The notes: a model not told the origin generated them from the letters alone. Positions 3,452-64,000 are shown, counted from the stretch's first letter. The stretch: 64,000 nucleotides of DNA from Escherichia coli (GCF_013315695.1 NZ_CP054353.1), one strand, 5' to 3'. Numbers and translations are program-made.

Positions 3452-4566
3452 ATGAAGGGACAGATAATGGAATCGCTCTCAGAAGGAACCACAGCAGGCT
3501 ACCAGCAAATCCACGACGGCATTATTCATCTGGTCGATAGCGCCCGGACGGAAACGGTACGTAGTGTTAACGCGTTAATGACCGCCACATACTGGGAAAT
3601 TGGCCGACGAATTGTCGAATTTGAACAAGGTGGCGAGGCCAGGGCTGCGTATGGTGCGCAGCTAATCAAGCGACTATCAAAGGATTTACGTCTAAGGTAT
3701 AAGCGTGGGTTTTCCACCAGGAATTTATGGCAGTTTAAGAATTTTTATATTTGTTTTCAACGAATTGAAATTGTGCAGACACTGTCTGCACAATTCGCCA
3801 GACACTATCTGGCGAATCTTGCCATTTAGCGCAACTGGCCAAATCCTTCCCCCTGCCCTGGTCCACTTACGTCCGTTTGCTTTCTGTTAAAAACGCTGAC
3901 GCTCGTAGCTTTTATGAGAAAGAGACACTCCGCTGTGGCTGGTCTGCTCGTCAGCTCGAACGGCAAATTGCGACCCAATTTTATGAGCGGACACTACTGT
4001 CACATGACAAATCAGCCATGCTGCAACAACACGCTCCTGCCGAGACGCATATTCTTCCGCAACGGGCGATACGCGATCCCTTTGTGCTCGAATTTCTGGA
4101 ATTGAAAGATGAATATTCAGAATCCGATTTTGAGGAGGCGCTGATCAACCACCTGATGGATTTCATGCTGGAACTTGGGGATGATTTTGCCTTTGTTAGT
4201 CGACAGCGAAGGTTACGCATTGATGACAACTGGTTTCGTGTCGATCTGCTGTTTTTCCACCGCCGTTTACGCTGCCTGCTAATCGTCGATCTAAAAGTGG
4301 GCAAATTCAGCTATAGCGATGCCGGACAGATGAATATGTATCTCAACTACGCCAAAGAGCACTGGACGCTACCGGATGAAAATCCGCCCATCGGTCTGAT
4401 TCTCTGTGCAGAGAAAGGAGTCGGAGAAGCGCATTATGCACTGGCTGGTTTGCCTAACACCGTTCTGGCGAGTGAATATAAGATGCAACTACCTGATGAA
4501 AAACGACTCGCGGATGAACTCGTTCGAACACAGGCGGTGTTAGAGGAAGGCTATAGACGCCGTTAA
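3452..4566 (+). pseudogene. yhcG: yhcG-like DUF1016/PDDEXK-type protein, split into two frames (3452-3829 and about 3769-4566)
   Basis: Two adjacent ORFs in different frames together cover one YhcG-like protein; the conserved LPWSxY...ARSFYE segment lies in the downstream frame; frames overlap at a palindrome-rich segment. Confidence 0.6.
3769..3817. repeat. two overlapping perfect palindromes (P1 3769-3795, P2 3793-3817) with shared core CAGACAC(T)(G/A)TCTG
   Basis: Read directly: AATTGTGCAGACAcTGTCTGCACAATT and ATTCGCCAGAcactaTCTGGCGAAT. Confidence 0.8.
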
Positions 4567-10101: not shown

Positions 10102-11648
10102 TCTGTAAGGTCAGTGTGATTAACATCATCAGTGACATCCTATCACAGGATTGAAAGTAGGGGGAAATGGCGGGGTTTTCTCTTTGTGCCTCATCATTAC
10201 TATAATTAACTGAATAATTAACTATTGCGAAAAATTAATGTAACGCAGATAAAAACATCCCGACTGAATTATTCATAAGACTATTAACAAGTATTATGAA
10301 TATTATGAATGTGTTCTTACAAAATAATCATAAGCGCATATTTTTTAATGAAAAATCACCTCATCTACAATTAAAAACACGACATCCGCACCATAAATAG
10401 CCTTGCAAAAAATATAACATCATTGTTTTCAATCTGCCGTTTATGGGATTGACCGTTTTCTTTTGACACGGAGTTCAACAATGTTCGGCATAATTATATC
10501 TGTCATCGTATTAATTACGATGGGCTATTTGATCCTGAAAAACTACAAACCTCAGGTGGTGCTGGCTGCCGCAGGTATCTTCCTGATGATGTGCGGTGTC
10601 TGGTTAGGGTTCGGTGGTGTGCTCGATCCCGCCAAAAGCAGCGGCTACTTGATCGTCGATATTTATAATGAAATCCTGCGCATGCTGTCCAACCGCATTG
10701 CCGGATTGGGGCTGTCGATTATGGCAGTGGGTGGTTATGCCCGCTATATGGAGCGCATAGGGGCCAGTCGCGCGATGGTGAGCTTGTTAAGCCGCCCGTT
10801 AAAACTCATTCGCTCGCCGTATATTATTCTGTCGGCAACTTACGTCATCGGCCAAATCATGGCGCAGTTTATTACCAGCGCCTCCGGTCTGGGTATGTTG
10901 CTGATGGTCACCTTATTTCCGACGCTGGTGAGTCTGGGAGTAAGTCGCCTCTCTGCGGTGGCGGTTATCGCAACCACGATGTCCATTGAGTGGGGGATTC
11001 TGGAAACGAACTCCATTTTTGCTGCCCAGGTCGCAGGAATGAAAATTGCCACTTACTTCTTCCACTACCAGCTTCCGGTCGCCTCTTGCGTCATTATCTC
11101 GGTGGCGATCTCCCACTTTTTCGTGCAACGCGCTTTCGACAAAAAAGATAAAAATATCAATCACGAACAGGCAGAGCAAAAAGCTCTCGATAATGTCCCG
11201 CCGCTCTATTACGCCATTTTACCGGTGATGCCGTTAATCCTGATGCTCGGCTCGCTGTTCCTTGCCCACGTCGGGCTGATGCAGTCAGAACTGCATCTGG
11301 TGGTGGTGATGTTACTGAGTTTGACGGTGACGATGTTTGTTGAGTTCTTCCACAAGCATAACTTGCGCGAAACAATGGACGATGTGCAGGCGTTTTTTGA
11401 CGGCATGGGTACGCAGTTTGCCAACGTGGTAACGCTGGTGGTCGCGGGTGAAATATTTGCGAAAGGCTTAACGACGATTGGCACTGTCGATGCGGTTATC
11501 AGGGGGGCGGAGCATTCTGGTCTGGGCGGTATTGGCGTGATGATTATTATGGCGCTGGTCATTGCCATTTGTGCCATTGTGATGGGCTCAGGCGGTGATG
11601 CTGCCAACTTACTGATTTAGTGTATGATGGTGTTTTTGAGGTGCTCCA

Positions 11649-11924
11649 GTGGCTTCTGTTTCTATCAGCTGTCCCTCCTGTTCAGCTACTGACGGGGTGG
11701 TGCGTAACGGCAAAAGCACCGCCGGACATCAGCGCTATCTCTGCTCTCACTGCCGTAAAACATGGCAACTGCAGTTCACTTACACCGCTTCTCAACCCGG
11801 TACGCACCAGAAAATCATTGATATGGCCATGAATGGCGTTGGATGCCGGGCAACAGCCCGCATTATGGGCGTTGGCCTCAACACGATTTTACGTCACTTA
11901 AAAAACTCAGGCCGCAGTCGGTAA
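11649..11924 (+). CDS. insA: IS1 InsA (transposition inhibitor / N-terminal part of transposase)
   Basis: 91-aa ORF with zinc-finger-like CPSC...CSHC motif typical of IS1 InsA. Confidence 0.9.
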
Positions 11925-12346
11925 CCTCGCGCATACAGCCGGGCAGTGACGTCATCGTCTGCGCGGAAATGGACGAACAGTGGGGCTATGTCGGGGCTAA
12001 ATCGCGCCAGCGCTGGCTGTTTTACGCGTATGACAGGCTCCGGAAGACGGTTGTTGCGCACGTATTCGGTGAACGCACTATGGCGACGCTGGGGCGTCTT
12101 ATGAGCCTGCTGTCACCCTTTGACGTGGTGATATGGATGACGGATGGCTGGCCGCTGTATGAATCCCGCCTGAAGGGAAAGCTGCACGTAATCAGCAAGC
12201 GATATACGCAGCGAATTGAGCGGCATAACCTGAATCTGAGGCAGCACCTGGCACGGCTGGGACGGAAGTCGCTGTCGTTCTCAAAATCGGTGGAGCTGCA
12301 TGACAAAGTCATCGGGCATTATCTGAACATAAAACACTATCAATAA
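11843..12346 (+). CDS. insB: IS1 InsB frame (expressed as InsAB' transposase by -1 frameshift)
   Basis: 167-aa ORF overlapping insA in the -1 frame, as in canonical IS1. Confidence 0.85.
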
Positions 12347-12637
12347 GTTGGAGTCATTACCCGCTCAGGCAATGCGCCGTTTATGTCATTTGCCAGTCTT
12401 ATTCCGAATATCGCAGCCGGACTACATGTACCAGCGGTTGTAATGATTATGCCGATGCATTTTGCCACGACGCTAGCGCGCGCTGTTTCGCCGATTACTG
12501 CGGTGGTGGTCGTTACGTCAGGAATTGCAGGCGTTTCGCCTTTTGCGGTAGTGAAGCGGACAGCGATCCCCATGGCAGTCGGTTTCGTGGTGAATATGAT
12601 TGCCACTATCACGCTATTTTATTAAGCGATTAAAAAG

Positions 12638-40600: not shown

Positions 40601-41431
40601 TTGAAATCATTATTCAATCGGTTAACGGGAAAAGCGGTTAGCCGGACAGCTTTCGTCGAACATCTTGGTCATGAAGTTGTACAACATCATCCAAACTGGA
40701 AAGTCATGATTTCGACTGACCATAAATTGATGCGCATTGATACGGGTCACCAAACGGTGGAAATCACTCTTGATGATGCCTACAAACGTTATCAAGCCGC
40801 ACCAGACCCGCTGGAAGAAGTGGCTGCAGATATGCTGAAACAGCTTGCAGAAATGCTGCCGACCGGGCGCTGTATTGTTCCGGTGATTAAAGAAAAAGCC
40901 TGGCTGGATACCGTTCGCCAACAGCTTAGCCAGTATGAATCTGATCCAGAGATCCTCAACGCCTCGCTGGATTTTGCCTGGGAAGACTTTAACGATGAGT
41001 TAATTATCTTGTTTGCTGAAGATGGTAGCGAAACCATGCGCTATCTGATGCGCTACGAAGTGACCATTGACCGCGAACAAGCCATCAATAATTTGAAGCA
41101 AATATTGCCGGAAGTTTCGGCTGAAATCGTTGATACAGGCGCAAACGCTGGAAAAGTTGCCGTTATCTCCGCAGGGGGTACTTATGAGCCCAGTCTGATG
41201 CTCATTGACGATCTTTGGGTGCAATCACCCGATCCTGAATGCGGCGACCTGTTAGTGACTGTTCCCTCCAGAGGAAAACTGTTTTTCACCTACAATGATC
41301 AGCCAGCAAATCTCAGCGCATTACGACAGTTAACAGAACAATGCTTCCGTGAGGATGACCATCCTCTGACAACACAGATATTCATCCGCCGTAACGGTCA
41401 CTTTTATCCCTGGGTAGAAACCTTGCATTAA
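40601..41431 (+). CDS. hypothetical protein, 276 aa (TTG start)
   Basis: Uninterrupted ORF with a plausible Shine-Dalgarno (AGAGAGGGAA) about 10 bp upstream; protein-like composition; no confident family assignment. Confidence 0.55.
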   Translation: MKSLFNRLTGKAVSRTAFVEHLGHEVVQHHPNWKVMISTDHKLMRIDTGHQTVEITLDDAYKRYQAAPDPLEEVAADMLKQLAEMLPTGRCIVPVIKEKAWLDTVRQQLSQYESDPEILNASLDFAWEDFNDELIILFAEDGSETMRYLMRYEVTIDREQAINNLKQILPEVSAEIVDTGANAGKVAVISAGGTYEPSLMLIDDLWVQSPDPECGDLLVTVPSRGKLFFTYNDQPANLSALRQLTEQCFREDDHPLTTQIFIRRNGHFYPWVETLH

Positions 41432-42296
41432 CGCAACCTCCGTCATGCTTGAAAAAGCTTGTCGGAGTATGTGATGAATGCTGCAAACTCACCGAAGCCG
41501 ATTTTGCCACCAAATCGGCTTTTTTATTGTCACGCGGCAAATTCTGAATGCATCACATAGCCGCACTGCCGCCTGACAAAACAGTTTACCTTCTGCAAAA
41601 TGGGGGGAATAATCTGATTTTATTTGATTACAAATTAACCACTTAAACCTATTTAATGCTGAGCATTGTCAGTCGGTTGATTTTGCGTGCTTTAGCATTC
41701 ACATCTATCCAGACGATGCAGTGAAAATTGGGTAATCCCCAGCAACCGCTGCGTAATGTCGTCTATCTTGTCGCGATCCTGGCATCCCTACATTATTTGT
41801 GGTCTGTGAAGATTATCTCATTGCAGCCCCTCATCTTCGCAGGGCTGGCTTTACAGCTTTTCACCTTACGTTATAAGAAGTTCCGTCGATGATGGCGCTA
41901 ATTTCGTGAATTGTGCGGCTTGTTGCAAATTACACGGTGTTGAAGGTTATTTACATGTTAGCTGTTGATTATCTTCCCTGATAAGACCAGTATTTAGCTG
42001 CCAATTGCTACGAAATCGTTATAATGTGCGACCTCGTCCTCCCTGACGCAGTTTTTGCGCTGCGGAAAAGGTGACATTGGCGCAACGAAGGTATATTTTG
42101 TTTTTTGCCGGAGGATAGCAGCAGATCGCTGCACAATGTCCGTCAAGTCTAACATTGACACTCTGGGGCAAAATAGACCGGCGTCCCGGCCTGCTGGAAT
42201 TTATCGCTATGCATACAGCTGTCGGGGCATACGCTTTACAGACGGCGGTGAAACGCCTGTCACAATCACACTAAACAAAGAGTACGGAACCCACTC

Positions 42297-42777: not shown

Positions 42778-44127
42778 ATGCTGGATAAAATTGTTATTGC
42801 CAACCGCGGCGAGATTGCATTGCGTATTCTTCGTGCCTGTAAAGAACTGGGCATCAAGACTGTCGCTGTGCACTCCAGCGCGGATCGCGATCTAAAACAC
42901 GTATTACTGGCAGATGAAACGGTCTGTATCGGCCCTGCTCCGTCAGTAAAAAGTTATCTGAACATCCCGGCAATCATCAGCGCCGCTGAAATCACCGGCG
43001 CAGTAGCAATCCATCCGGGCTACGGCTTCCTCTCCGAGAACGCCAACTTTGCCGAGCAGGTTGAACGCTCCGGCTTTATCTTCATCGGCCCGAAAGCAGA
43101 AACCATTCGCCTGATGGGCGACAAAGTATCCGCAATCGCGGCGATGAAAAAAGCGGGCGTTCCTTGCGTACCGGGTTCTGACGGCCCGCTGGGCGACGAT
43201 ATGGATAAAAACCGCGCCATTGCTAAACGCATTGGTTATCCGGTAATTATCAAAGCCTCCGGCGGCGGCGGCGGTCGCGGTATGCGCGTAGTGCGCGGCG
43301 ACGCTGAACTGGCACAATCCATCTCCATGACCCGTGCGGAAGCGAAAGCTGCTTTCAGCAACGATATGGTTTACATGGAGAAATACCTGGAAAATCCTCG
43401 CCACGTCGAGATTCAGGTACTGGCTGACGGTCAGGGCAACGCTATCTATCTGGCGGAACGTGACTGCTCCATGCAGCGCCGCCACCAGAAAGTGGTCGAA
43501 GAAGCACCAGCACCGGGCATTACCCCGGAACTGCGTCGCTACATCGGCGAACGTTGCGCTAAAGCATGTGTTGATATCGGCTATCGCGGTGCAGGTACTT
43601 TCGAGTTCCTGTTCGAAAATGGCGAGTTCTATTTCATCGAAATGAACACCCGTATTCAGGTAGAACACCCGGTTACTGAAATGATCACCGGCGTTGACCT
43701 GATCAAAGAACAGCTGCGTATCGCTGCCGGTCAACCGCTGTCGATCAAGCAAGAAGAAGTTCACGTTCGCGGCCATGCGGTAGAGTGCCGTATCAACGCC
43801 GAAGATCCGAACACCTTCCTGCCAAGCCCGGGCAAAATCACCCGTTTCCATGCACCTGGCGGTTTTGGCGTGCGTTGGGAGTCTCATATCTACGCGGGCT
43901 ACACTGTGCCGCCGTACTATGACTCAATGATCGGCAAACTGATTTGCTACGGTGAAAACCGTGACGTGGCGATTGCCCGCATGAAGAATGCGCTGCAGGA
44001 GCTGATCATCGACGGTATCAAAACCAACGTTGATCTGCAGATCCGCATCATGAATGACGAGAACTTCCAGCATGGTGGCACTAACATCCACTATCTGGAG
44101 AAAAAACTCGGTCTTCAGGAAAAATAA
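42778..44127 (+). CDS. accC: biotin carboxylase
   Basis: 449-aa ATP-grasp enzyme starting [16 protein letters not shown]; the track ORF extension overlaps accB and was rejected. Confidence 0.97.
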
Positions 44128-44174
44128 TTTGTGATGCGCGGTGTTTTCATCGCGCTTAGCAAAGAACGTAATCA

Positions 44175-44208
44175 ACGCCGGGCCTGTTAACGCTGCCCGG
44201 CGTTTTTA
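44175..44208. terminator. rho-independent terminator after accC (also downstream of the convergent islet operon)
   Basis: CGCCGGGC-loop-GCCCGGCG hairpin followed by T5. Confidence 0.7.
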
Positions 44209-44218
44209 TTGCCGTTAG

Positions 44219-45265
44219 CTAACGGTAGCTTGCAATTTCCGCTTTCAACGCGCTAATTTCAGCATCGCCATCAACAATTCCCAGCTCAAAGCAGTATGTC
44301 TTTGTTTCCCCTGGCTCTATAAAGGGCAGACGCCCCTGCGCTCGTTCTTTATCACGACCGTCAGGAAAACTATTGCTGACCTCCAGCCCCATAACATATT
44401 CACCCGCGCCTAAATTTTTCCAGTGGATAAAGTTGGGTAGCTGCATGGTGTCGAATTTCTCGTAAATTCCCCACCCCAGTTCGGCGTTCACCAGCGCAAC
44501 TTTACTCATCCCCTGACTGTCGCTATTCAACGTGAGATAGTAAACCTGCTCGTCAAAACCGGGCTGTGGGGTACAAATCTCCAGATGACTGGTTAACCCT
44601 TCCGCCGCATGCGGGGTTCGTGGCGTTACGCTTTTAGCCGACAGCAAGATTTCTGCCTGTGGCGATAATAAAGGCCAGCCGTAATTAAAGTGATAAAGAA
44701 TTTGCAGCGGCTGGCGGGTGAAACCATGATTAGTCACCTTGTCTTCAATGCGCAGCACATTTTCGCCATAACGGCAGCGAATGGTCCTTTCCAGCGTCAG
44801 ATTTTCACCGAACAATCGTGTTTCCCGTACTTTGCCATTGATGACAAATTCAATGCCGTCGTCGGTCCGTTCTGTGCGATACCCCACCTCTTCTGCTGGA
44901 GTCGCAGCCAAACGCCCGTGTAACCCCAGCGTTTCTCCGTTATCCTCACAGGGCGTGCCAATGTAGCTAAGTCCGCAGGTAGTCAGTAACCCCGCGTAGA
45001 AGCTACGTAAAAACCCGTTGCCCTGAGACTCAAAAAAAGCGGGGGCGACAATGCCGTTGGGGGTGATAAAAGAGAGCGCAGTATCCTTGTAGCTGGCCCA
45101 TGCAATATCCAGCGCGCGATCTTTTACCACCGTAAATGCCAGTCCCGCACCAGTACGGACATCAAACGCTTCTGTCCCCTTTGCTCTGCCACTACGTAAC
45201 TCATAGTGTTTAATTCCGGCAACCTGCGAGAGATCGCCAATCCACGACCAAATTTCGTTTTTCAT
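44219..45265 (-). CDS. mutarotase-like / DUF4432-like protein (islet)
   Basis: 348-aa ORF overlapping the upstream kinase stop by 4 bp; family assignment from memory only. Confidence 0.6.
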   Translation of the reverse strand: MKNEIWSWIGDLSQVAGIKHYELRSGRAKGTEAFDVRTGAGLAFTVVKDRALDIAWASYKDTALSFITPNGIVAPAFFESQGNGFLRSFYAGLLTTCGLSYIGTPCEDNGETLGLHGRLAATPAEEVGYRTERTDDGIEFVINGKVRETRLFGENLTLERTIRCRYGENVLRIEDKVTNHGFTRQPLQILYHFNYGWPLLSPQAEILLSAKSVTPRTPHAAEGLTSHLEICTPQPGFDEQVYYLTLNSDSQGMSKVALVNAELGWGIYEKFDTMQLPNFIHWKNLGAGEYVMGLEVSNSFPDGRDKERAQGRLPFIEPGETKTYCFELGIVDGDAEISALKAEIASYR

Positions 45266-46224
45266 TGTGCTGCTTCCCGAATGGACATGTCATGGCGCTG
45301 GATGAACGCTTCGATTTCCGCAAGGCGAGACGTTCCCTCCATTGGGCCACGTCGGGTTACCGCCAGTGCACCGCAGGCGTTGGCATATTGTAATGCCCGA
45401 TGGGCGTCAAACCCTAGCTGGCGGCAGGCAATCCACGCGCCACCAAAACAGTCTCCCGCACCGGTCGGGTCAACTTCTTCCACCGGATAGCTCTCAACAT
45501 GAAACTGCTCATTCGCGGAGTAGTAACTGGCACCTTGATTGCCGCGCTTCACAATCACCTCTTTAACACCTTCTTCAAGAAAACCAGCGATTGCACGCTC
45601 CGGTGTCGAGTGTGGCGACAAGAGCAACACTTCTCCCTCGCTGGGCATATAGATATCTGTTAACTCAAGAACAAAGTGGAGGGCGTCACGCATTTCTGGA
45701 ATATCGAGCATCTCTTTCCGAATATTAGGGTCAAAAGAAATAACGCCACCATTCTCTTTTACAATGGTTACCGCTTTCTTTACTGCGTCTACCATATGGA
45801 ATGAAAACAGGGATGAACCCATAATATGAAAATGGGTACAGTCCTTCAGAATATTTTCATCAACATGCTGCGCCGATAATTTACCGCAAGCGGCATTCTT
45901 GATATTAAAAATAAAATCGCGATCGCCAGAGTTATGATAAGTAACAAAGGCACTCCCGGTAGCTTCCAGAGGTAAGACTGAAATCCCCCTGATATCCACA
46001 CCGTCAGCAGCCAGACGATGTATATTAATATCACCAAAGCCATCATTCCCCACACAGCTAATGATGCCGCACGGAACGCCAAGACGTGTCACCTGGTCGA
46101 TAAAAATAGCGGGTGCGCCACTGGGATAAGGGCCGTTCCAGATACCTGGTTGATCAAATGGCTGGCCGATTTTACTCGCCATAATTTCAACCAGAATTTC
46201 TCCAATTGTGAAGACCTTACTCAT
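45262..46224 (-). CDS. PfkB-family sugar kinase (islet kinase 1)
   Basis: 320-aa ORF with ribokinase-superfamily motifs (GG..N.A, DPTGAGDCF anion-hole). Confidence 0.85.
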   Translation of the reverse strand: MSKVFTIGEILVEIMASKIGQPFDQPGIWNGPYPSGAPAIFIDQVTRLGVPCGIISCVGNDGFGDINIHRLAADGVDIRGISVLPLEATGSAFVTYHNSGDRDFIFNIKNAACGKLSAQHVDENILKDCTHFHIMGSSLFSFHMVDAVKKAVTIVKENGGVISFDPNIRKEMLDIPEMRDALHFVLELTDIYMPSEGEVLLLSPHSTPERAIAGFLEEGVKEVIVKRGNQGASYYSANEQFHVESYPVEEVDPTGAGDCFGGAWIACRQLGFDAHRALQYANACGALAVTRRGPMEGTSRLAEIEAFIQRHDMSIREAAQ

Positions 46225-46245
46225 ATGATTAATTCCTTGAAATGA

Positions 46246-47235
46246 TTAGCTGCGTTTTCTTTTATTTCTTACGTCAAAATAAACGGCTACAAGAATGACT
46301 AATCCTTTAACCACCATCTGATAGAAATAGGGAACGTTCATTAAGTTCATGCCATTATTAATAACGCCGATGGTTAATGCCCCGATTACCGTCCCCACCA
46401 CGGTTCCATAGCCGCCGTTCAGGCTGGTGCCTCCCAGTACAGCCGCAGCAATAGCATCCAGTTCGTAGCTCAACGCGGAATTCGGTTGCCCGGAATAGAG
46501 GCGTGAGGCGAGGATCATCCCGCTGATACCTGCCAGCACAGCTGTAATCATAAAGACTTTTATTTTCAAGCGGGTGACATTTATCCCTGAATAAACTGCC
46601 GCTTCTTTATTACCACCAGTGATATAAATCTTTCGTCCAAAGGTTGTTTTAGTAAGAATGAAATGGTTAATCAGCAATAAGATAATTAATATCCAGATTG
46701 GAATAGGTATATAGAGAAATTCTCCATTCCCCAGCGCCAGAAAGGCATCATCTTTAATCATGATGGGCATACCATCGGTCACTATATAAGCGATACCACG
46801 GAAGATCCCCATAGTAGCAACGGTGACAATAAACGACGGGATCCCCGCTATAGCCGTCAAGCCACCATTTATCATCCCCAGAGCCAGGGCTGCAATAATG
46901 GATAATGGGACCAATAAAATAAATGGAATTCCCCATGAAGCCCCAAGCGCAGCAAATGTGCCAATCAATGCAATGGTTGAACCAACCGATAAATCAATAT
47001 CGCCAAGCAAAAGTACGTAAGTCATTCCATAGGCGGTAATTGCAATTATCGAAACCTGAAGAATAATATTAGTAATGTTATTGGCGGTAAAAAAACTGTC
47101 ATTAATAAAACTGAACAGAATGATTAACACCACCATTCCACTGAGGATACCGCCATATTGCCTGAAGACTTTTTTAAAATTATTTGCAATGGGAATTTCC
47201 GAAGGTTTCGGACTGGCAAGAGTTTTCTCTGTCAT
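46246..47235 (-). CDS. sugar ABC transporter permease (RbsC/AraH-like)
   Basis: 329-aa polytopic membrane protein abutting the ATPase gene. Confidence 0.85.
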   Translation of the reverse strand: MTEKTLASPKPSEIPIANNFKKVFRQYGGILSGMVVLIILFSFINDSFFTANNITNIILQVSIIAITAYGMTYVLLLGDIDLSVGSTIALIGTFAALGASWGIPFILLVPLSIIAALALGMINGGLTAIAGIPSFIVTVATMGIFRGIAYIVTDGMPIMIKDDAFLALGNGEFLYIPIPIWILIILLLINHFILTKTTFGRKIYITGGNKEAAVYSGINVTRLKIKVFMITAVLAGISGMILASRLYSGQPNSALSYELDAIAAAVLGGTSLNGGYGTVVGTVIGALTIGVINNGMNLMNVPYFYQMVVKGLVILVAVYFDVRNKRKRS

Positions 47236-48735
47236 TTAACGTACTCCTGTTGCAGCGGTCATTACCTGTGTCTGCGTTAAATTTTCACATGAATAAATAT
47301 CGGCAATCGTTTTATTACGCATTACCACCAGACGATCGCTAAGTGCCATGACTTCTGGCAGTTCAGAGGACACCAGAATAATTGCTGTCCCTGCCGCAGC
47401 CAGTTGACGTATCACGTTATAGATTTCAAATTTTGCGCCGACATCCACTCCGCGCGTTGGCTCATCGAGCAATAAAATACGCGGAGTTTTCTCCAGCCAC
47501 TTCGATAACACGATTTTCTGTTGATTACCGCCGCTCAGTGCTCCCACTGCCTGATGTACAGAACTCACTTTAGTGTTCATTCTGGCAATTGATTGCAGCG
47601 TCTTCGCCTCTTCTTGTCGGTGATTGATAAGTCCTATCCGCGAAGCGTTATATTGAAACGCCACATGGTGCGTGTTCATATTGACGTCGTGCATCAGCAC
47701 TAACCCTTCTTCCTTGCGGTTTTCGGTCACAAAAGCAATGCCATGATCAATAGCCTGTTTGGGATTAGCGATCCTGACTTCCTTACCATCAATCAACACA
47801 GTCCCGTGATACGAAACGAGGCCAAATAGCGCCTTCATCACATCGGAACGCCCGGCCCCCACCAGGCCAAAAAATCCGAGGACTTCCCCCGGACGCACAG
47901 CGAAACTGACCTCTTTAAAAAGCGAAGGATGGGAAAGGTTTTTTACTTCCAGTTTTGCAGGAACATTTTCATCCGGCTTTTCCCCAAGACGTGCTGGCCA
48001 AATATTTTTCATTTCCCGACCAACCATTTGGGCAATCAAATGCTGGATATCACTGTTTTTCTTTTCATGCGTAGCGATATACTCACCGTCGCGGATCACC
48101 GAAATATCATCTGAAATCCGCATAATTTCATCCATGCGATGAGAGATATAAATAACCGCACAACCTCGCTGCTTTAATTTCTCAATAATGTTAAACAGAA
48201 TCTCTGCTTCATTATCACTTAGCGAAGATGTCGGTTCATCCATAATCACGACATCTGCTGCATAGCTTAAGGCTTTGGCAATTTCTACCAGTTGCCTATG
48301 TGCCATCGACATATTGCCGACCATTTCCAGCGGATCCAGTGGGATGCCCAGTTCCGCGAGGAGATTCTGGCAATCTGCGAGCATTTTTTTATCGTTAATA
48401 ATGCCAAAACGTCGCGGTTCATTATTGGCATAAATATTTTCCGCCACGGTCATATTATTACTCAGGCTCAGTTCCTGAAAAATAATCGCAATCCCTAACT
48501 GGCGAGAATGCTGCGGATTATTAATGGTGATGGTTTCACCACGTAGTGTTATCGTTCCCTGGGTTGGCGGATAAACACCGGCGAGTATTTTCATTAATGT
48601 CGATTTACCGGCACCATTCTCGCCTAATAAAGTATGCACCCGCCCTTTACGTAAAGAGAGGGTAATATCTTTTAATGCCTGAACATGACCAAATGTCTTC
48701 GCAATATGCGAAACATCAAGAATAACATCCGTCAT
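47236..48735 (-). CDS. sugar ABC transporter ATP-binding protein, duplicated-domain type (RbsA-like)
   Basis: 499-aa ORF with two ABC cassettes (Walker A GENGAGKST, signature LSGGNQQK). Confidence 0.88.
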   Translation of the reverse strand: MTDVILDVSHIAKTFGHVQALKDITLSLRKGRVHTLLGENGAGKSTLMKILAGVYPPTQGTITLRGETITINNPQHSRQLGIAIIFQELSLSNNMTVAENIYANNEPRRFGIINDKKMLADCQNLLAELGIPLDPLEMVGNMSMAHRQLVEIAKALSYAADVVIMDEPTSSLSDNEAEILFNIIEKLKQRGCAVIYISHRMDEIMRISDDISVIRDGEYIATHEKKNSDIQHLIAQMVGREMKNIWPARLGEKPDENVPAKLEVKNLSHPSLFKEVSFAVRPGEVLGFFGLVGAGRSDVMKALFGLVSYHGTVLIDGKEVRIANPKQAIDHGIAFVTENRKEEGLVLMHDVNMNTHHVAFQYNASRIGLINHRQEEAKTLQSIARMNTKVSSVHQAVGALSGGNQQKIVLSKWLEKTPRILLLDEPTRGVDVGAKFEIYNVIRQLAAAGTAIILVSSELPEVMALSDRLVVMRNKTIADIYSCENLTQTQVMTAATGVR

Positions 48736-48795
48736 AATGACCTCGGTGTCACAACAAAACGTCGATAACGTTTTGTTGTGAAATGAAGATGTTTA

Positions 48796-49686
48796 TCATT
48801 TACCTGTATAAACGCCGGGTTGTACCGGGATCATTTTTTCTACCGGTTTACCATTGAGGTGATCAACAGCGGCATCAATGGCTTTAGCACCCATTTGATC
48901 GGGATATTGCCGAATCACGGCCGCAAACGTTTTTTCACTGTCAACGGCATCACGCGCTTCTTTCATGCCGTCAAAACCAATGATTTTGATGTTGTCGTTA
49001 TGCGCAGATTTCGCTGCGATAACCGCTGCCAGCGCCGCATCATCACCAAAGCCAAACAGACCATTCAGGTTGGCATTTGCCTGCATAATGTTTTGCGCAG
49101 TCGTTAACGCTTCAGCCCGCGTAATACCAGGCTGTTCAGCAACAATTTTAATATCCGGTGTATCGCTTAACCCTTTCTTAAAACCATCAACGCGCGCAAC
49201 CACCGATTGTAATGCCGGATAAGAAATAATGGCTACAGTACCTTTACCATTCAAAAGTTTGCCCATTAACTTGCCTGCTTCAACGCCTCCCGCGTAGTTA
49301 TCGGTCGCAACATGCGATACGACCGGAACGCCTTCCGCAGCGACGTCGACGGTGATAACGGGAATACCGGCCTTATCGGCTTTAATTATCGCCGCCTGGA
49401 CGCCTTTCGAATCGACCGGAGAGATAATAATGGCATCCACTTTTTTAGTAATAAAATCCTCAACATCAGAAAGTTGTTTGTTTAAATCCTGATTGGCAAT
49501 AGAGACACTTAAATTGACATTGTCTTTTTTTGCCTCTTCTTTCATGGCATTCGCAAGATCAATATAGAAAGGATGTTGCTGTGTTAATAATGACGCACCA
49601 ATTTTATACTCTTTTGCCAACGAGCTTTGCGAGAACAATGCCAGGCTCACCAACATAGCTGAACCAAGTAATTTAATATTTTTCAT
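48796..49686 (-). CDS. periplasmic sugar-binding protein (RbsB-like)
   Basis: 296-aa ORF with signal peptide MKNIKLLGSAMLVSLALFSQSSLA. Confidence 0.85.
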   Translation of the reverse strand: MKNIKLLGSAMLVSLALFSQSSLAKEYKIGASLLTQQHPFYIDLANAMKEEAKKDNVNLSVSIANQDLNKQLSDVEDFITKKVDAIIISPVDSKGVQAAIIKADKAGIPVITVDVAAEGVPVVSHVATDNYAGGVEAGKLMGKLLNGKGTVAIISYPALQSVVARVDGFKKGLSDTPDIKIVAEQPGITRAEALTTAQNIMQANANLNGLFGFGDDAALAAVIAAKSAHNDNIKIIGFDGMKEARDAVDSEKTFAAVIRQYPDQMGAKAIDAAVDHLNGKPVEKMIPVQPGVYTGK

Positions 49687-49721
49687 AAATAATCCTCATT
49701 GTTTTTGTAGGGTACAACATC

Positions 49722-50603
<882 letters not shown>

Positions 50604-50917
50604 TTACAAAATGAAGAAAGAGAATCTTCACTTTCATTTTGAAAGCAAACTAGCACAGCAAAAGCGGCAAAAAGCGTGATGCATGTCGAATATCATCAAA
50701 ATAACTTACAAAAAATAACTTAATTTGTTTTTTACTTTGTAAGTGAAACCAATGACACCTCTGCATAAATATGAATATATTCATTTATTTTTCAATGTAT
50801 TAAGCTATTTTCGTTGCGATTTTTGACCCATGATTTTCTTTTCGAATTGTCGATATTATTGAAGGGTAACTTTCAAAGAAAAATACAAGGGGCTATAGTG
50901 TTACGCATTAAAGGCCA

Positions 50918-51748
50918 ATGAAGAGTGTTAACGTGCCGAGAAAATCGTCTAACCTACTGAAACGCAGATTAAAAATTGCAGAAATTGTTGCCGCCCAGGG
51001 TGAAATCAAAGTTGATGACTTATCTGCGCAACTTGGTGTCTCTAGCGTGACGATCCGCGGCGATCTCAGTTATCTGGAGCAACAGGGATATTTAAAGCGA
51101 TCATTTGGCGGTGCTATTGCGACACCACTCTCCTCTGAACCAGAAGCGATACAACCGATCGCGCCGTTGTCTCTGGCACAACAAATGGAAATAGCACGAC
51201 ATTGCGCACGGTTAATTCGGGATCGTGACACGCTATTTCTTGGACATGGGACAATCTGCCGTAAGATCATTCCCTTGCTCAGCGAAGTGAAAAAACTGCG
51301 TCTGATCACCAACGATCCCGAACATGCGCTGCTGGCAAATCAGTTTATTGATGGCGAAATAATACTGGCTGGCAGTGAAATGCTGCGCCCCGATACCGCA
51401 CTGGCCGGAAAACCTCTCGAACAGGCACTTCAGCATTTCACCATTACACATAGCATTCTGGAAATCAGCCATCTGGATGCTGATGGTACTTTAAATATCA
51501 ACGTTCCCAGACTTGCCGCTGCCTGGCAGCTCTGTTTCGATAATGCCCAGAATAAGACGGTTATCGTTGCCGCCGATCCTGCGCCATCAACGGCTGCTAT
51601 CGGGCATTTGCATCAAGCAGAAAATGTGATCGTCAGCCGCAGCATTAACGAACAATATCAGCAACAATTGCAGTCGGCTGATTTCGTTATCCTTTATACC
51701 AGTAATGAGTGCTTTACCTGGTCCAATCGCGAAAGGCTTCAGGAATGA
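50918..51748 (+). CDS. DeoR-family transcriptional regulator
   Basis: 276-aa ORF with N-terminal DeoR HTH (LSAQLGVSSVTIRGDL) and sugar-phosphate-binding C-domain; divergent from the aldolase-ABC operon. Confidence 0.8.
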   Translation: MKSVNVPRKSSNLLKRRLKIAEIVAAQGEIKVDDLSAQLGVSSVTIRGDLSYLEQQGYLKRSFGGAIATPLSSEPEAIQPIAPLSLAQQMEIARHCARLIRDRDTLFLGHGTICRKIIPLLSEVKKLRLITNDPEHALLANQFIDGEIILAGSEMLRPDTALAGKPLEQALQHFTITHSILEISHLDADGTLNINVPRLAAAWQLCFDNAQNKTVIVAADPAPSTAAIGHLHQAENVIVSRSINEQYQQQLQSADFVILYTSNECFTWSNRERLQE

Positions 51749-51758
51749 GAGGGGTTTT

Positions 51759-52715
51759 GTGACAATAACTATCTGCGCTATGGGCGAATTGCTGGCCGAG
51801 TTTTTGTCCCGCAACCCACATCAAAAATTCACTCAGCCTGGGGAGTTTATCGGGCCATTTCCCAGCGGTGCACCAGCAATTTTTGCTGCTCAGGTGGCAA
51901 AACTGTCCCATCGGGCCATCTTCTTCGGATGTGTTGGTAATGATGATTTTGGCCGACTCATTATAGAGCGTCTCCGTCATGAAGGTGTCATTACCGATGG
52001 GATTCACGTTATGAACAATGCCGTCACAGGTACGGCGTTCGTGAGTTATCAAAATCCCCAGCAGCGGGATTTCGTCTTTAATATCCCTAACAGCGCCTGC
52101 GGTTTGTTTACTGCCGAGCACATTGATAAGGATCTGCTTAAACAGTGTAACCATCTGCATATTGTGGGCTCATCGTTGTTCTCATTTCGCATGATCGATG
52201 TCATGCGTAAAGCAATAACGACGATCAAATCGGCTGGCGGAACCGTTTCTTTCGATCCCAATATTCGCAAAGAGATGCTGAGCATTCCTGAAATGGCGCA
52301 GGCCCTCGATTATTTGATTGAATATACGGATATTTTTATCCCCAGCGAAAGCGAACTCCCTTTCTTCGCGCGTCACAAAAATCTGTCAGAAGAACAGATT
52401 GTTAGCGATCTTCTCCACGGCGGCGTAAAACATGTGGCGATAAAACGCGCCCAGCGTGGGGCCAGCTATTACAAGCTTAAAAACGGTACATTACACGCCC
52501 AGCATGTTACAGGCCACGATATCGAAATTATCGATCCAACGGGTGCAGGCGACTGCTTTGGCGCAACGTTTATCACTCTTTTCTTATCCGGTTTCCCGGC
52601 ACACAAGGCGCTGCAATATGCAAATGCCAGCGGCGCGCTCGCCGTAATGCAGCAAGGTCCGATGGAAGGGATATCCTCACTGACTGACATTGAAGACTTT
52701 TTGCAGCAGCACTGA
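51759..52715 (+). CDS. PfkB-family sugar kinase (islet kinase 2, paralog of kinase 1)
   Basis: About 50% identical to kinase 1 over its full length; GTG start chosen after RBS GAGAGGGG and by alignment with the kinase 1 N-terminus. Confidence 0.8.
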   Translation: MTITICAMGELLAEFLSRNPHQKFTQPGEFIGPFPSGAPAIFAAQVAKLSHRAIFFGCVGNDDFGRLIIERLRHEGVITDGIHVMNNAVTGTAFVSYQNPQQRDFVFNIPNSACGLFTAEHIDKDLLKQCNHLHIVGSSLFSFRMIDVMRKAITTIKSAGGTVSFDPNIRKEMLSIPEMAQALDYLIEYTDIFIPSESELPFFARHKNLSEEQIVSDLLHGGVKHVAIKRAQRGASYYKLKNGTLHAQHVTGHDIEIIDPTGAGDCFGATFITLFLSGFPAHKALQYANASGALAVMQQGPMEGISSLTDIEDFLQQH

Positions 52716-52807
52716 ACGGCAATTTTCTGTCAGATTATTTTCCCTGCCTGAAGAGTTGCCGTAGAATTGCCCGTTTCTCGTATCCCCCCATGAGGAGGAC
52801 CCCTTCC

Positions 52808-53050
52808 GTGGACACTCGTTTTGTTCAGGCCCATAAAGAGGCGCGCTGGGCGCTGGGGCTGACCCTTTTGTATCTGGCGGTATGGTTAGTAGCCGCTTAC
52901 TTACCTGGCGTTACCCCCGGTTTTACCGGCTTTCCACGCTGGTTTGAGATGGCTTGCATCCTGACGCCGCTGCTGTTTATTGGACTGTGCTGGGCGATGG
53001 TGAAATTTATCTATCGCGATATCCCACTGGAGGATGACGATGCAGCTTGA
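52808..53050 (+). CDS. yhdT: small membrane protein YhdT (DUF997)
   Basis: 80-aa two-helix ORF with GTG start (VDTRFVQAH), overlapping the panF start. Confidence 0.85.
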   Translation: MDTRFVQAHKEARWALGLTLLYLAVWLVAAYLPGVTPGFTGFPRWFEMACILTPLLFIGLCWAMVKFIYRDIPLEDDDAA

Positions 53051-54491
53051 AGTAATTCTACCGCTGGTCGCCTATCTGGTGGTGGTGTTCGGTATCTCTG
53101 TTTATGCGATGCGTAAACGAAGCACTGGCACCTTCCTTAATGAGTATTTCCTCGGCAGCCGCTCTATGGGCGGTATTGTGCTGGCGATGACACTCACCGC
53201 GACCTATATCAGTGCCAGTTCGTTTATCGGCGGGCCTGGAGCTGCTTATAAATACGGCCTGGGCTGGGTATTGCTGGCGATGATTCAGCTTCCTGCAGTC
53301 TGGCTTTCGCTCGGTATTCTCGGCAAGAAGTTCGCAATTCTTGCGCGCCGCTACAATGCGGTGACGCTGAACGATATGCTGTTTGCCCGCTACCAGAGTC
53401 GTCTGCTGGTGTGGCTGGCGAGTTTAAGTTTGCTGGTTGCGTTCGTTGGTGCGATGACCGTGCAGTTTATCGGCGGTGCGCGCCTGCTGGAAACCGCGGC
53501 GGGTATCCCTTATGAAACAGGTTTGCTGATTTTTGGCATCAGCATTGCGCTCTACACCGCCTTTGGCGGCTTTCGCGCCAGCGTGCTGAACGACACCATG
53601 CAAGGGCTGGTGATGCTGATTGGCACCATTGTGCTGCTTATTGGCGTGGTCCATGCTGCTGGCGGCTTAAGCAATGCAGTAGAGACGCTGCAAACCATCG
53701 ATCCGCAACTGGTTACGCCACAAGGCGCTGACGATATTCTGTCACCTGCGTTTATGACGTCGTTCTGGGTGCTGGTGTGCTTTGGCGTTATAGGCCTGCC
53801 GCATACTGCGGTGCGCTGTATCTCTTATAAAGACAGCAAAGCAGTACATCGGGGGATCATCATCGGTACGATTGTAGTCGCAATCCTGATGTTCGGTATG
53901 CATCTGGCCGGAGCGTTAGGTCGGGCGGTGATCCCCGATCTCACCGTACCGGACCTGGTGATCCCGACGTTGATGGTAAAAGTACTGCCACCGTTTGCTG
54001 CCGGGATCTTCCTTGCAGCTCCTATGGCTGCGATCATGTCGACGATCAACGCCCAATTGCTGCAAAGTTCCGCTACGATCATTAAAGATCTCTATCTGAA
54101 TATCCGTCCGGATCAAATGCAAAACGAGACGCGCCTGAAGCGGATGTCGGCGGTGATTACGTTGATTCTCGGCGCGTTGCTGCTGCTTGCTGCATGGAAG
54201 CCGCCTGAAATGATCATCTGGCTGAATTTGCTGGCCTTCGGCGGGCTGGAAGCTGTCTTCCTGTGGCCGCTGGTACTGGGTCTTTACTGGGAACGCGCTA
54301 ACGCCAAAGGCGCGCTAAGTGCGATGATCGTTGGCGGCGTGCTGTATGCCGTACTTGCGACACTGAATATTCAGTACCTGGGCTTCCACCCTATCGTGCC
54401 CTCGTTGCTGCTAAGTTTGCTGGCTTTCCTGGTCGGAAACCGTTTCGGTACGTCCGTCCCGCAAGCTACCGTTTTGACTACTGATAAATAA
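53040..54491 (+). CDS. panF: sodium/pantothenate symporter
   Basis: 483-aa SSS-family transporter from MQLEVILPL. Confidence 0.95.
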
Positions 54492-57085: not shown

Positions 57086-57970
57086 ATGAGAACAGGATGT
57101 GAACCGACCCGATTTGGTAATGAAGCAAAGACCATCATCCAAGGTGATGCATTAACCGAACTTAAAAAGATCCCCGCCGAAAGTGTAGATCTGATCTTTG
57201 CCGACCCACCGTATAACATCGGTAAAAATTTTGATGGTCTGATCGAAGCCTGGAAAGAAGATCTGTTTATCGACTGGCTGTTTGAAGTGATTGCAGAGTG
57301 CCACCGCGTTCTGAAAAAGCAGGGCAGCATGTACATCATGAACAGCACGGAAAACATGCCCTTTATCGATCTCCAGTGCCGCAAGCTTTTTACCATCAAA
57401 AGTCGCATCGTCTGGTCATATGACAGTTCTGGAGTGCAGGCGAAAAAACACTACGGCTCCATGTACGAACCCATCCTGATGATGGTGAAAGACGCAAAGA
57501 ACTACACGTTCAACGGTGATGCTATTCTGGTAGAAGCCAAAACCGGATCGCAGCGCGCGTTGATCGATTATCGCAAAAATCCTCCACAGCCTTACAATCA
57601 TCAAAAAGTACCGGGTAACGTCTGGGATTTTCCGCGCGTGCGTTATTTGATGGATGAATATGAGAATCACCCGACGCAAAAACCGGAAGCCTTACTGAAA
57701 CGCATTATTCTCGCCTCTTCCAACCCAGGCGATATCGTTCTCGACCCGTTTGCCGGTAGCTTTACTACCGGTGCCGTAGCCGCCGCCAGCGGGCGAAAAT
57801 TCATTGGTATTGAGATCAACAGCGAGTACATCAAAATGGGGCTTCGACGGCTGGATGTCGCGTCGCATTACTCTGCGGAAGAACTGGCGAAAGTGAAAAA
57901 AAGAAAGACCGGCAACCTGTCAAAACGAAGCCGGTTAAGCGAAGTTGACCCCGATCTCATTGCAAAGTAA
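57086..57970 (+). CDS. yhdJ: DNA adenine methyltransferase YhdJ
   Basis: 294-aa N6-MTase with DPPY motif and SAM-binding motif near the C-terminus. Confidence 0.92.
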   Translation: MRTGCEPTRFGNEAKTIIQGDALTELKKIPAESVDLIFADPPYNIGKNFDGLIEAWKEDLFIDWLFEVIAECHRVLKKQGSMYIMNSTENMPFIDLQCRKLFTIKSRIVWSYDSSGVQAKKHYGSMYEPILMMVKDAKNYTFNGDAILVEAKTGSQRALIDYRKNPPQPYNHQKVPGNVWDFPRVRYLMDEYENHPTQKPEALLKRIILASSNPGDIVLDPFAGSFTTGAVAAASGRKFIGIEINSEYIKMGLRRLDVASHYSAEELAKVKKRKTGNLSKRSRLSEVDPDLIAK

Positions 57971-58053
57971 AGGAAGTGTAAGCCTGGTTTTCAGATTATT
58001 CATTTCGTGTATATTTCCTGCCAGACTTGGTTAAACATGCACAGGCTCAGGTA

Positions 58054-58233
58054 ATGATTCGCAAGTATTGGTGGCTCGTCGTTTTCGCTGTCTTCGTTTT
58101 TCTGTTTGATACTTTACTGATGCAGTGGATTGAACTGCTGGCAACAGAAACAGACAAATGCCGCAATATGAACTCAGTTAATCCACTAAAACTGGTTAAC
58201 TGTGACGAACTGAATTTTCAGGACAGAATGTGA
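58054..58233 (+). CDS. yhdU: small membrane protein YhdU
   Basis: 59-aa ORF with one TM helix (MIRKYWWLVVFAVFVFLF). Confidence 0.7.
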   Translation: MIRKYWWLVVFAVFVFLFDTLLMQWIELLATETDKCRNMNSVNPLKLVNCDELNFQDRM

Positions 58234-63246: not shown

Positions 63247-63301
63247 GGTGATGCTGCCAACTTACTGATTTAGTGTATGATGGTGTTTTTGAGGTGCTCC
63301 A

Positions 63302-63577
63302 GTGGCTTCTGTTTCTATCAGCTGTCCCTCCTGTTCAGCTACTGACGGGGTGGTGCGTAACGGCAAAAGCACCGCCGGACATCAGCGCTATCTCTGCTCT
63401 CACTGCCGTAAAACATGGCAACTGCAGTTCACTTACACCGCTTCTCAACCCGGTACGCACCAGAAAATCATTGATATGGCCATGAATGGCGTTGGATGCC
63501 GGGCAACAGCCCGCATTATGGGCGTTGGCCTCAACACGATTTTACGTCACTTAAAAAACTCAGGCCGCAGTCGGTAA
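63302..63577 (+). CDS. insA: IS1 InsA
   Basis: Protein identical to the insA of the first copy. Confidence 0.9.
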
Positions 63578-63999
63578 CCTCGCGCATACAGCCGGGCAGT
63601 GACGTCATCGTCTGCGCGGAAATGGACGAACAGTGGGGCTATGTCGGGGCTAAATCGCGCCAGCGCTGGCTGTTTTACGCGTATGACAGGCTCCGGAAGA
63701 CGGTTGTTGCGCACGTATTCGGTGAACGCACTATGGCGACGCTGGGGCGTCTTATGAGCCTGCTGTCACCCTTTGACGTGGTGATATGGATGACGGATGG
63801 CTGGCCGCTGTATGAATCCCGCCTGAAGGGAAAGCTGCACGTAATCAGCAAGCGATATACGCAGCGAATTGAGCGGCATAACCTGAATCTGAGGCAGCAC
63901 CTGGCACGGCTGGGACGGAAGTCGCTGTCGTTCTCAAAATCGGTGGAGCTGCATGACAAAGTCATCGGGCATTATCTGAACATAAAACACTATCAATAA
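63496..63999 (+). CDS. insB: IS1 InsB frame
   Basis: Protein identical to the insB of the first copy. Confidence 0.85.
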
Positions 64000-64000
64000 G

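Follow-up and report, generated by a model that had tools for sequence, protein, structure and literature searches.

The closest described counterparts of the locus reported here are the rhizobial D-tagatose pathway (Sinorhizobium meliloti and Agrobacterium tumefaciens C58; PMC9720028), the gat and aga/kba systems of Escherichia coli together with the Klebsiella oxytoca tagatose pathway based on the phosphotransferase system (PTS), and the LacABCD pathway of Gram-positive bacteria. The locus itself is an eight-gene block between accC and yhdT in 64,000 nucleotides of E. coli DNA (GCF_013315695.1, NZ_CP054353.1; this whole stretch is hereafter called the window, and positions are counted from its first letter), and is very probably the E. 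coli tag locus, an accessory islet gained for D-tagatose catabolism. Like the islet, the rhizobial pathway combines a CUT2-type ATP-binding cassette (ABC) importer with a PfkB-family tagatose kinase and has a DeoR-type regulator nearby. Rhizobia convert tagatose-6-phosphate to fructose-6-phosphate with a 4-epimerase; in the islet, a DUF4432 protein is encoded at the corresponding place and a class II aldolase is present, and the islet route would run via tagatose-1,6-bisphosphate with the help of the host PfkA. The gat, aga/kba, and K. oxytoca systems have the same last step, catalyzed by a class II tagatose-1,6-bisphosphate aldolase (TagY of the islet shares 64% identity with GatY and 56% with KbaY; PMC9720028), and also share a DeoR-family repressor with the islet, whose arrangement of a CRP site plus operators is like that of aga (PMC12226905). 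These systems take up a phosphorylated sugar through the PTS and contain a GatZ/KbaZ subunit, in contrast to the ABC importer and separate kinase of the islet; none of its eight genes matched the PTS or GatZ/KbaZ families. The LacABCD pathway has tagatose-6-phosphate and tagatose-1,6-bisphosphate in common with the islet, as well as a regulator of the DeoR family (LacR, a sensor of tagatose-6-phosphate). LacC is, however, a tagatose-6-phosphate kinase of the 1-phosphofructokinase subfamily and LacD a class I aldolase, whereas neither islet kinase falls in that subfamily and the islet aldolase is of class II.

An 8.5-kb, eight-gene region at the accC/yhdT site, not present in K-12, has been described in E. 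coli Nissle 1917 (Ha et al. 2022, iScience 25:105655, PMC9720028). Growth on D-tagatose requires its six-gene reverse-strand operon, which is also sufficient for it: deletion of the operon, or in-frame deletion of its kinase gene (tagD) alone, ends growth and tagatose consumption, and the cloned operon renders K-12, B, and W strains tagatose-positive. The host pfkA is needed for this growth and pfkB is not. On tagatose, tagY, tagA, and tagB are induced more than 1000-fold and all six operon genes more than 40-fold, the regulator–kinase pair being raised only about twofold. The same study reported the low G+C content (GC) of the region (−4.9%) and found the locus in 93% of phylogroup B2, 73% of F, and 7% of B1 strains and rarely elsewhere, which is the phylogroup comparison that an earlier reading of the window, made by a model from the sequence alone (the sequence-only reading), had proposed. 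A second study (Park et al. 2025, Microb Cell Fact 24:158, PMC12226905) assigned the gene names tagK, tagR, tagY, tagA, tagB, tagC, tagD, and tagE, found one transcription start per operon by differential RNA sequencing (dRNA-seq), predicted the promoters Ptag and Preg along with a CRP site and a pair of operators, and demonstrated that an excess of TagR silences Ptag and blocks growth on tagatose. The block is thus a known and experimentally characterized locus and not a new finding; the novelty implied by the sequence-only reading is not justified, because the locus has been published together with its place between accC and yhdT, its low GC, and its distribution over the phylogroups.

In the window, the interval between accC and yhdT forms a block of 8.7 kb with eight intact open reading frames (ORFs), as judged by ORF calling and by the RefSeq annotation of a near-identical genome, E. 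coli MSB1_4I (4 mismatches and 1 indel over 43.7 kb). RefSeq names there comprise an aldose-1-epimerase-family protein, a sugar kinase, an ABC permease, an ABC ATPase, and a substrate-binding protein, with a DeoR/GlpR regulator and a second sugar kinase on the plus strand. The number of genes, their strands, and their families are those given by the sequence-only reading, which also held that the block is missing from K-12; the K-12 gap between accC and yhdT is indeed only 108 bp. The reading's right edge for the block (52807) is exact. The left edge, placed at 44209 next to an accC terminator, lies ~80 nt too far to the right, because homology to the K-12 empty site extends to the accC stop codon and non-K-12 DNA begins directly after it, at 44128; a hairpin is present there, but it is the islet allele's own. 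The genes and their flanks are as follows.

42778–44127, plus strand: accC, left core flank, outside the islet (835 bits on the NCBIfam accC equivalog model; also called accC in the near-identical genome)
44219–45265, minus strand: tagE, DUF4432 protein of 348 residues, putatively galactose-mutarotase-like, with the annotation 'aldose 1-epimerase family'
45262–46224, minus strand: tagD, D-tagatose kinase of the PfkB family, tagatose to tagatose-6-phosphate (414 bits on NCBIfam TagKinase, whose cut-off is 420)
46246–47235, minus strand: tagC, ABC permease, RbsC/AraH-like (NCBIfam AraH/RbsC-like matches below cut-offs), ortholog of Nissle tagC
47236–48735, minus strand: tagB, ABC ATPase with two ATP-binding domains (NCBIfam XylG/AraG/RbsA-like matches below cut-offs), ortholog of Nissle tagB
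48796–49686, minus strand: tagA, periplasmic sugar-binding protein, RbsB-like (NCBIfam, 160 bits, below cut-off), ortholog of Nissle tagA
49722–50576, minus strand: tagY, class II tagatose-1,6-bisphosphate aldolase, GatY-like, first gene of the operon, ortholog of Nissle tagY
50918–51748, plus strand: tagR, DeoR/GlpR-family repressor of Ptag (NCBIfam AgaR/GlpR/SrlR-like matches below cut-offs)
51759–52715, plus strand: tagK, second predicted PfkB kinase, co-transcribed with tagR; RefSeq start at ATG 51780
52808–53050, plus strand: yhdT, right core flank, outside the islet (NCBIfam PRK10633, 165 bits)

The window is collinear and gap-free with Nissle 1917 (NZ_CP058217) from 41600 to 63247, and the islet has 97.7% nucleotide identity to the Nissle tag locus; the eight genes, their order and orientation, and the flanks on either side are shared. 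Amino-acid differences from Nissle number 1 in TagA, 2 in TagC, 3 each in TagB and TagD, 4 each in TagR and TagK, 5 in TagY, and 10 in TagE. The ratio of nonsynonymous (dN) to synonymous (dS) divergence from Nissle is 0.02–0.13 in seven of the genes, and all eight (0.02–0.36) are under purifying selection. The window's copy is an allelic variant from a lineage other than that of Nissle and B2, and its dS values (0.04–0.14) fall inside the range of the flanking core genes (0.02–0.18), which indicates that the islet has been diverging along with the backbone and did not arrive recently in this lineage. Based on the eight intact genes and the conserved control elements described below, the window's copy is expected to work like that of Nissle.

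The family assignments agree with such a function. TagY scored 529 bits on the NCBIfam GatY subfamily model (cut-off, 383) and 476 bits on TIGR01858 (cut-off, 444). Both kinases, TagD and TagK, had their best NCBIfam score on the tagatose-kinase model (414 and 346 bits, respectively; cut-off, 420), with only 46 and 51 bits on TIGR03168, the hexose-phosphate kinase subfamily of LacC/FruK type (cut-off, 216). TagD matched the PDB entries 3iq0 and 3k9e, crystal structures deposited as 'putative ribokinase II', with 724 bits, and these two entries are structures of TagD. TagABC is assigned by family to the CUT2-type sugar ABC systems. The sequence-only reading had held that substrate and pathway could not be deduced; this was wrong, since both kinases score best on a tagatose-kinase model, the aldolase exceeds the cut-offs of tagatose-bisphosphate aldolase models, and the D-tagatose route has been shown in Nissle (PMC9720028, PMC12226905). 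In the proposed scheme, the operon tagYABCDE would be transcribed from Ptag on the minus strand, and the binding protein TagA, the ATPase TagB, and the permease TagC would import free D-tagatose, which TagD would phosphorylate to tagatose-6-phosphate. The housekeeping PfkA, encoded outside the islet, would convert this to tagatose-1,6-bisphosphate, and TagY would split the latter into dihydroxyacetone phosphate and glyceraldehyde-3-phosphate for entry into glycolysis. TagR, whose supply from the divergent Preg would be roughly constant, would repress Ptag through two operators overlapping the transcription start; tagatose would lift this repression, and the CRP site would bring glucose catabolite repression. 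Within this scheme we infer the direct binding of TagR to its operators, the identity of the inducer, and the roles of TagE and TagK.

Several caveats apply to the identification of the block as a D-tagatose islet. All experiments were done on the Nissle locus, from which the window's islet differs at 2.3% of bases, and the published deletions comprise tagD and the whole operon only, so that the individual roles of tagA, tagB, tagC, tagY, and tagE rest on annotation. On the curated tagatose-kinase model, TagD falls just under the cut-off and TagK under it. TagY stands without a GatZ/KbaZ-like partner in the islet, and a contribution from the host is possible; GatY and KbaY require a partner of this type for full activity. 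Free tagatose as the ligand of TagR is a working hypothesis. Finally, D-tagatose is rare in nature, and a related sugar could be the ecologically relevant substrate. Nothing in the sequence contradicts the identification.

The last of these points leads to the rival explanation that survives best, namely that D-tagatose is a side substrate and that the islet evolved for another ketose or sugar-alcohol product (D-psicose, D-sorbose, or a compound yielding tagatose), which TagK and TagE would serve. The scarcity of D-tagatose, which is general knowledge and is also discussed in PMC9720028, speaks for it, as do the sub-threshold scores of both kinases and the lack of any substrate-specific model matching TagA. 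Furthermore, tagK (dN/dS, 0.125), which is also retained in Trabulsiella and Superficieibacter, and tagE have been assigned no role in the tagatose route. The strong induction of the operon by tagatose, the growth on it as sole carbon source, and the conversion of K-12, B, and W to tagatose utilization by the operon alone (PMC9720028) argue against this explanation. Such a tagatose response of both regulator and transporter is unlikely to be accidental, and any other substrate is hypothetical; we therefore regard a different primary substrate as unlikely, and D-tagatose catabolism is retained as the function of the islet.

For the distribution of the locus, a 10-kb segment spanning the region and the islet alone were compared with 5,426 complete E. 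coli genomes. The 10-kb query matched 5,425 genomes, with full coverage in only 1,419; in the remainder, K-12 derivatives included, just the two flanks matched, adjoining each other. The islet alone gave any match in 1,422 genomes, 1,419 of which (26% of the total) contain at least 80% of the block, whereas ~74% are without it and only three further genomes hold any part. The accC–yhdT site is therefore essentially all-or-none, that is, biallelic. Only 5 of the 1,422 matching genomes are at least 99% identical to the window's copy, the closest being strain MSB1_4I. A tagY-like aldolase gene alone (87% identical) was seen outside the accC–yhdT context in a 66-kb E. coli record (NZ_JBTZOT010000002.1, 57221–58154). 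The base composition is atypical as well: GC is 46.3% in the islet and 51.5% elsewhere in the window, the minimum among 190 other windows of 8.68 kb being 48.9%. The values fall to 44.0% in tagABC, the transporter genes that had looked AT-richer by eye, and to 32% in the tagY–tagR spacer. The mean GC at third codon positions is 0.462 for the eight islet genes and 0.549 for the 42 other genes of the window (Mann–Whitney p = 1.5e-4). The presence/absence survey and the windowed composition analysis, both proposed by the sequence-only reading, thus agree with its view of eight accessory genes for sugar catabolism that form an AT-richer islet absent from K-12; these genes are neither in K-12 nor in most genomes, nor are their GC and third-position GC core-like, and on every point that could be checked this core of the reading was right.

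A degenerate pattern for the 3′-end of accC retrieved 118 species-representative loci of Enterobacterales, in nearly all of which yhdT starts 70–111 bp past accC. Loci of this empty type include those of E. albertii, E. whittamii, two other Escherichia species, Salmonella, Citrobacter, Klebsiella, Kluyvera, and Kosakonia. Because the sequence of the spacer is conserved from E. coli to Klebsiella, the empty site is ancestral and the islet was gained. In Superficieibacter electus (loci L009/L128), Trabulsiella odontotermitis (L104/L126), and Enterobacter sp. BIGb0383 (L011), accC is immediately followed by tag genes, so that at least three further genera of Enterobacteriaceae have the islet at this site. 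By exact-protein look-up, the order is accC, (tagE), tagD, C, B, A, Y, then tagR, tagK, and yhdT–panF–prmA, with tagE in Superficieibacter and without it in Trabulsiella; in the tagE-less islets of Trabulsiella and Enterobacter sp. BIGb0383, the end of tagD lies 42–85 bp from accC. Between the window and Trabulsiella or Superficieibacter, the Tag proteins are 75–94% identical, like the flanking AcuI, YhdT, and PanF, and the islets of both genera are also lower in GC than their own flanks.

That the block might instead be ancestral E. coli backbone deleted in K-12 and its relatives would agree with a divergence from B2 strains that matches that of the flanking core, marking the islet as old within E. 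coli, and with the resemblance of the Trabulsiella and Superficieibacter identities to those of flanking core proteins. However, the spacer conserved in other Escherichia, Salmonella, Citrobacter, and Klebsiella carries the accC terminator and the yhdT upstream box, and many independent precise deletions would not recreate it. In addition, only 26% of E. coli genomes have the islet, and its GC and third-position GC are significantly under those of the neighborhood, GC being low in the two other genera too. The backbone explanation is largely refuted and, in our estimate, very improbable; gain at an ancestral empty site is the reading that we follow.

A classical mobile genomic island carried by an integrase, a tRNA-targeting element, or an insertion sequence (IS) is hardly credible: a sharp presence/absence pattern, atypical base composition, and two IS1 copies elsewhere in the window would suit one, yet the block has no integrase, transposase, or tRNA in or beside it and no flanking direct or inverted repeats, and the IS1 copies lie 32 kb and 10.4 kb from it, sit inside other genes, and are missing from the corresponding region of the islet-bearing Nissle. 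The sequence-only reading had also seen no integrase, tRNA, or IS at the borders, and the tRNA, repeat, and ORF searches bear this out. No tRNA or tmRNA gene and no match to an Rfam family was found across the whole window; ORFs and annotation gave no recombinase in or beside the block; and no repeats bracket it beyond short pairs at chance level. The IS nearest to the islet is the IS1 ~10.4 kb to its right. The two copies, both IS1A in the same orientation (11594–12347 and 63247–64000), have ~51 kb between them including the tag islet. The first disrupts a dcuC-family transporter gene (yhcL-like), and the second, truncated where the window ends, disrupts acrF close to the 3′-end of that gene; neither is at an islet border.

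Since no mobility genes are present, recombination between flanks is the simplest route of transfer, and the islet most likely spreads through homologous recombination within its conserved flanks, accC on one side and yhdT–panF on the other. Carriers (the window, Nissle, and O18:H1) were compared in 150-bp bins with empty-site genomes (K-12 and four other Escherichia species), and no step near the junctions indicated a foreign tract extending into accC or yhdT–panF, so that breakpoints could not be placed. The panF gene (53040–54491) is more diverse than its neighbors (95.4% nucleotide identity to Nissle and a dS of 0.18, with 98.4–99.5% identity in yhdT, prmA, and dusB), and its diversity is high regardless of the presence of the islet in a strain.

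The borders of the occupied allele are formed by two spacers.

44128–44218, no strand assigned: left spacer, just past the tagE stop (minus strand), with a G+C-rich hairpin and T-run at 44176–44207
52716–52807, plus strand: right spacer, 92 nt, containing GTAGAATTGCCCGTTTCT, which corresponds in diverged form to the ancestral box GTACAATCCCCGCTTTCT upstream of yhdT

From E. coli to Klebsiella, the empty-site spacer consists of a GGCCGG...CCGGCC terminator followed by GTACAATCCCCGCTTTCTTCA...GGGACAAAAAATG. The left hairpin of the islet contains a terminator-like match at 44189–44204 (RNAfold, −17.6 kcal/mol) and could terminate accC transcription on the plus strand. A homologous hairpin is found in the Superficieibacter carrier, whereas all empty sites keep a different terminator; the hairpin belongs to the islet allele and replaces the K-12-type accC terminator. 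The right spacers of E. coli and of the Trabulsiella carrier are homologous and can be aligned to the box of the empty site, and yhdT begins with GTG in carriers and with ATG where the site is empty. The islet appears to move between Escherichia, Trabulsiella, Superficieibacter, and Enterobacter sp. carrying a diverged yhdT promoter and the GTG start. Traceless replacement of the whole 108-bp K-12 spacer was considered and dropped, as the last ~50 nt before yhdT resemble a diverged ancestral box in the comparison with Trabulsiella. A consensus scan found no promoter- or terminator-like match in the right spacer after tagK, and dRNA-seq detected no extra transcription start inside the region (PMC12226905); on these grounds, read-through from tagRK into yhdT–panF–prmA, the operon of the pantothenate permease, is possible.

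The control elements published for Nissle on the basis of dRNA-seq and alignment (PMC12226905) were placed in the window by exact search.

50577–50917, no strand assigned: divergent control region, 341 bp, 32% GC
50603–50621, plus strand: tagO2, predicted operator, exact match to the Nissle element
50627–50645, minus strand: tagO1, predicted operator, one mismatch to the Nissle element
50647–50652, minus strand: −10 element of Ptag, exact match to the Nissle element
50668–50673, minus strand: −35 element of Ptag, exact match to the Nissle element
50675–50690, minus strand: predicted CRP site, exact match to the Nissle element
50872–50877, plus strand: −35 element of Preg, exact match to the Nissle element; Preg was also found by the consensus scan
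50894–50899, plus strand: −10 element of Preg, exact match to the Nissle element

Ptag, Preg, both operators, and the CRP site all sit at the expected spacing. As for the signal, the DeoR-family sensors characterized so far nearly all bind phosphosugars, and by this analogy tagatose-6-phosphate is at least as likely to be the TagR inducer as free tagatose. The published model has free tagatose binding TagR, as a working hypothesis (PMC12226905).

The start of tagK is probably GTG 51759, the annotated ATG 51780 lying 21 nt too far downstream. The GTG codon is preceded by the Shine–Dalgarno-like GAGAGGGG and lies 11 nt past the tagR stop. It gives a protein of 318 residues (311 as annotated) with a restored N-terminal strand that aligns with TagD, and the RefSeq start methionine corresponds to isoleucine in the Trabulsiella ortholog. 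TagK is 51% identical to TagD. The idea that it is the missing tagatose-6-phosphate kinase was rejected as the leading one, because TagK belongs to the sugar/keto-acid kinase branch and not to LacC/FruK/PfkB-2, and has this identity to TagD. Also disfavoring it, tagK is barely induced by tagatose, and PfkA is needed where tagK is absent, although that experiment was not one on tagK itself. Our preferred hypothesis is that TagK may act as a sentinel kinase, making the inducer tagatose-6-phosphate from the first tagatose that enters an uninduced cell. The tagK gene is retained in three genera and steadily co-expressed with the repressor from the near-constitutive Preg. Alternatively, TagK might have a role on a second substrate.

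TagE contains a full-length Pfam DUF4432 domain (E = 3e-104) and matches one solved relative, PDB entry 3ty1 (E = 3e-32; described in its deposition as a hypothetical aldose 1-epimerase), which places it in the mutarotase fold class; no NCBIfam model matched it, and our literature search found no function described for DUF4432. Its gene has the highest dN/dS of the islet (0.36). The absence of tagE from two of the islets in other genera and its position as the least constrained gene suggest that it is dispensable in some lineages, which fits an accessory role. By analogy with RbsD and FucU, TagE may convert the ring form of the ketose, giving furanose or open-chain tagatose for the 6-kinase. 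This would make chemical sense, since O6 is locked in pyranose tagatose and a 6-kinase needs the furanose or open form, and, if true, would explain why TagE is helpful yet dispensable. The combined picture, with TagK as a sentinel kinase, TagE as a ring-form converter, and an islet that crosses genera by flank-homology replacement, is put forward as a tentative and, taken as a whole, rather doubtful one.

Other polymorphisms were seen in the vicinity. In the acuI–accB interval, an 856-bp segment (40744–41599) replaces 101 bp of the Nissle sequence and is present in full in 666 of the 5,426 genomes. It has a 276-residue ORF (40601–41431, plus strand), a RefSeq 'hypothetical protein' with a weak DUF1444 match (E = 0.025). 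The same interval holds msrP–msrQ in Trabulsiella and Superficieibacter, with aroQ in addition in Trabulsiella, and B2 strains keep only a pseudogene fragment of YedZ/MsrQ. In MSB1_4I, a gene with a PDDEXK nuclease domain between nanQ and gltD is annotated as a frameshifted pseudogene; its counterpart in the window lies at ~3466–4565.

The broader meaning of the locus has already been published. The tag locus is a private carbon source of B2 and F strains of E. coli, phylogroups that include most extraintestinal pathogenic and adherent-invasive strains as well as the probiotic Nissle; D-tagatose is now a food sweetener, and the locus has already been turned into a tagatose-inducible expression switch. 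The polarity set by the empty site, the islets in other genera, the right border, the dispensability of tagE, and the start of tagK are not yet in print, and all are incremental. If the reading of TagK and TagE given above is true, the two proteins would constitute a layer of sensing and substrate preparation beyond the published model.

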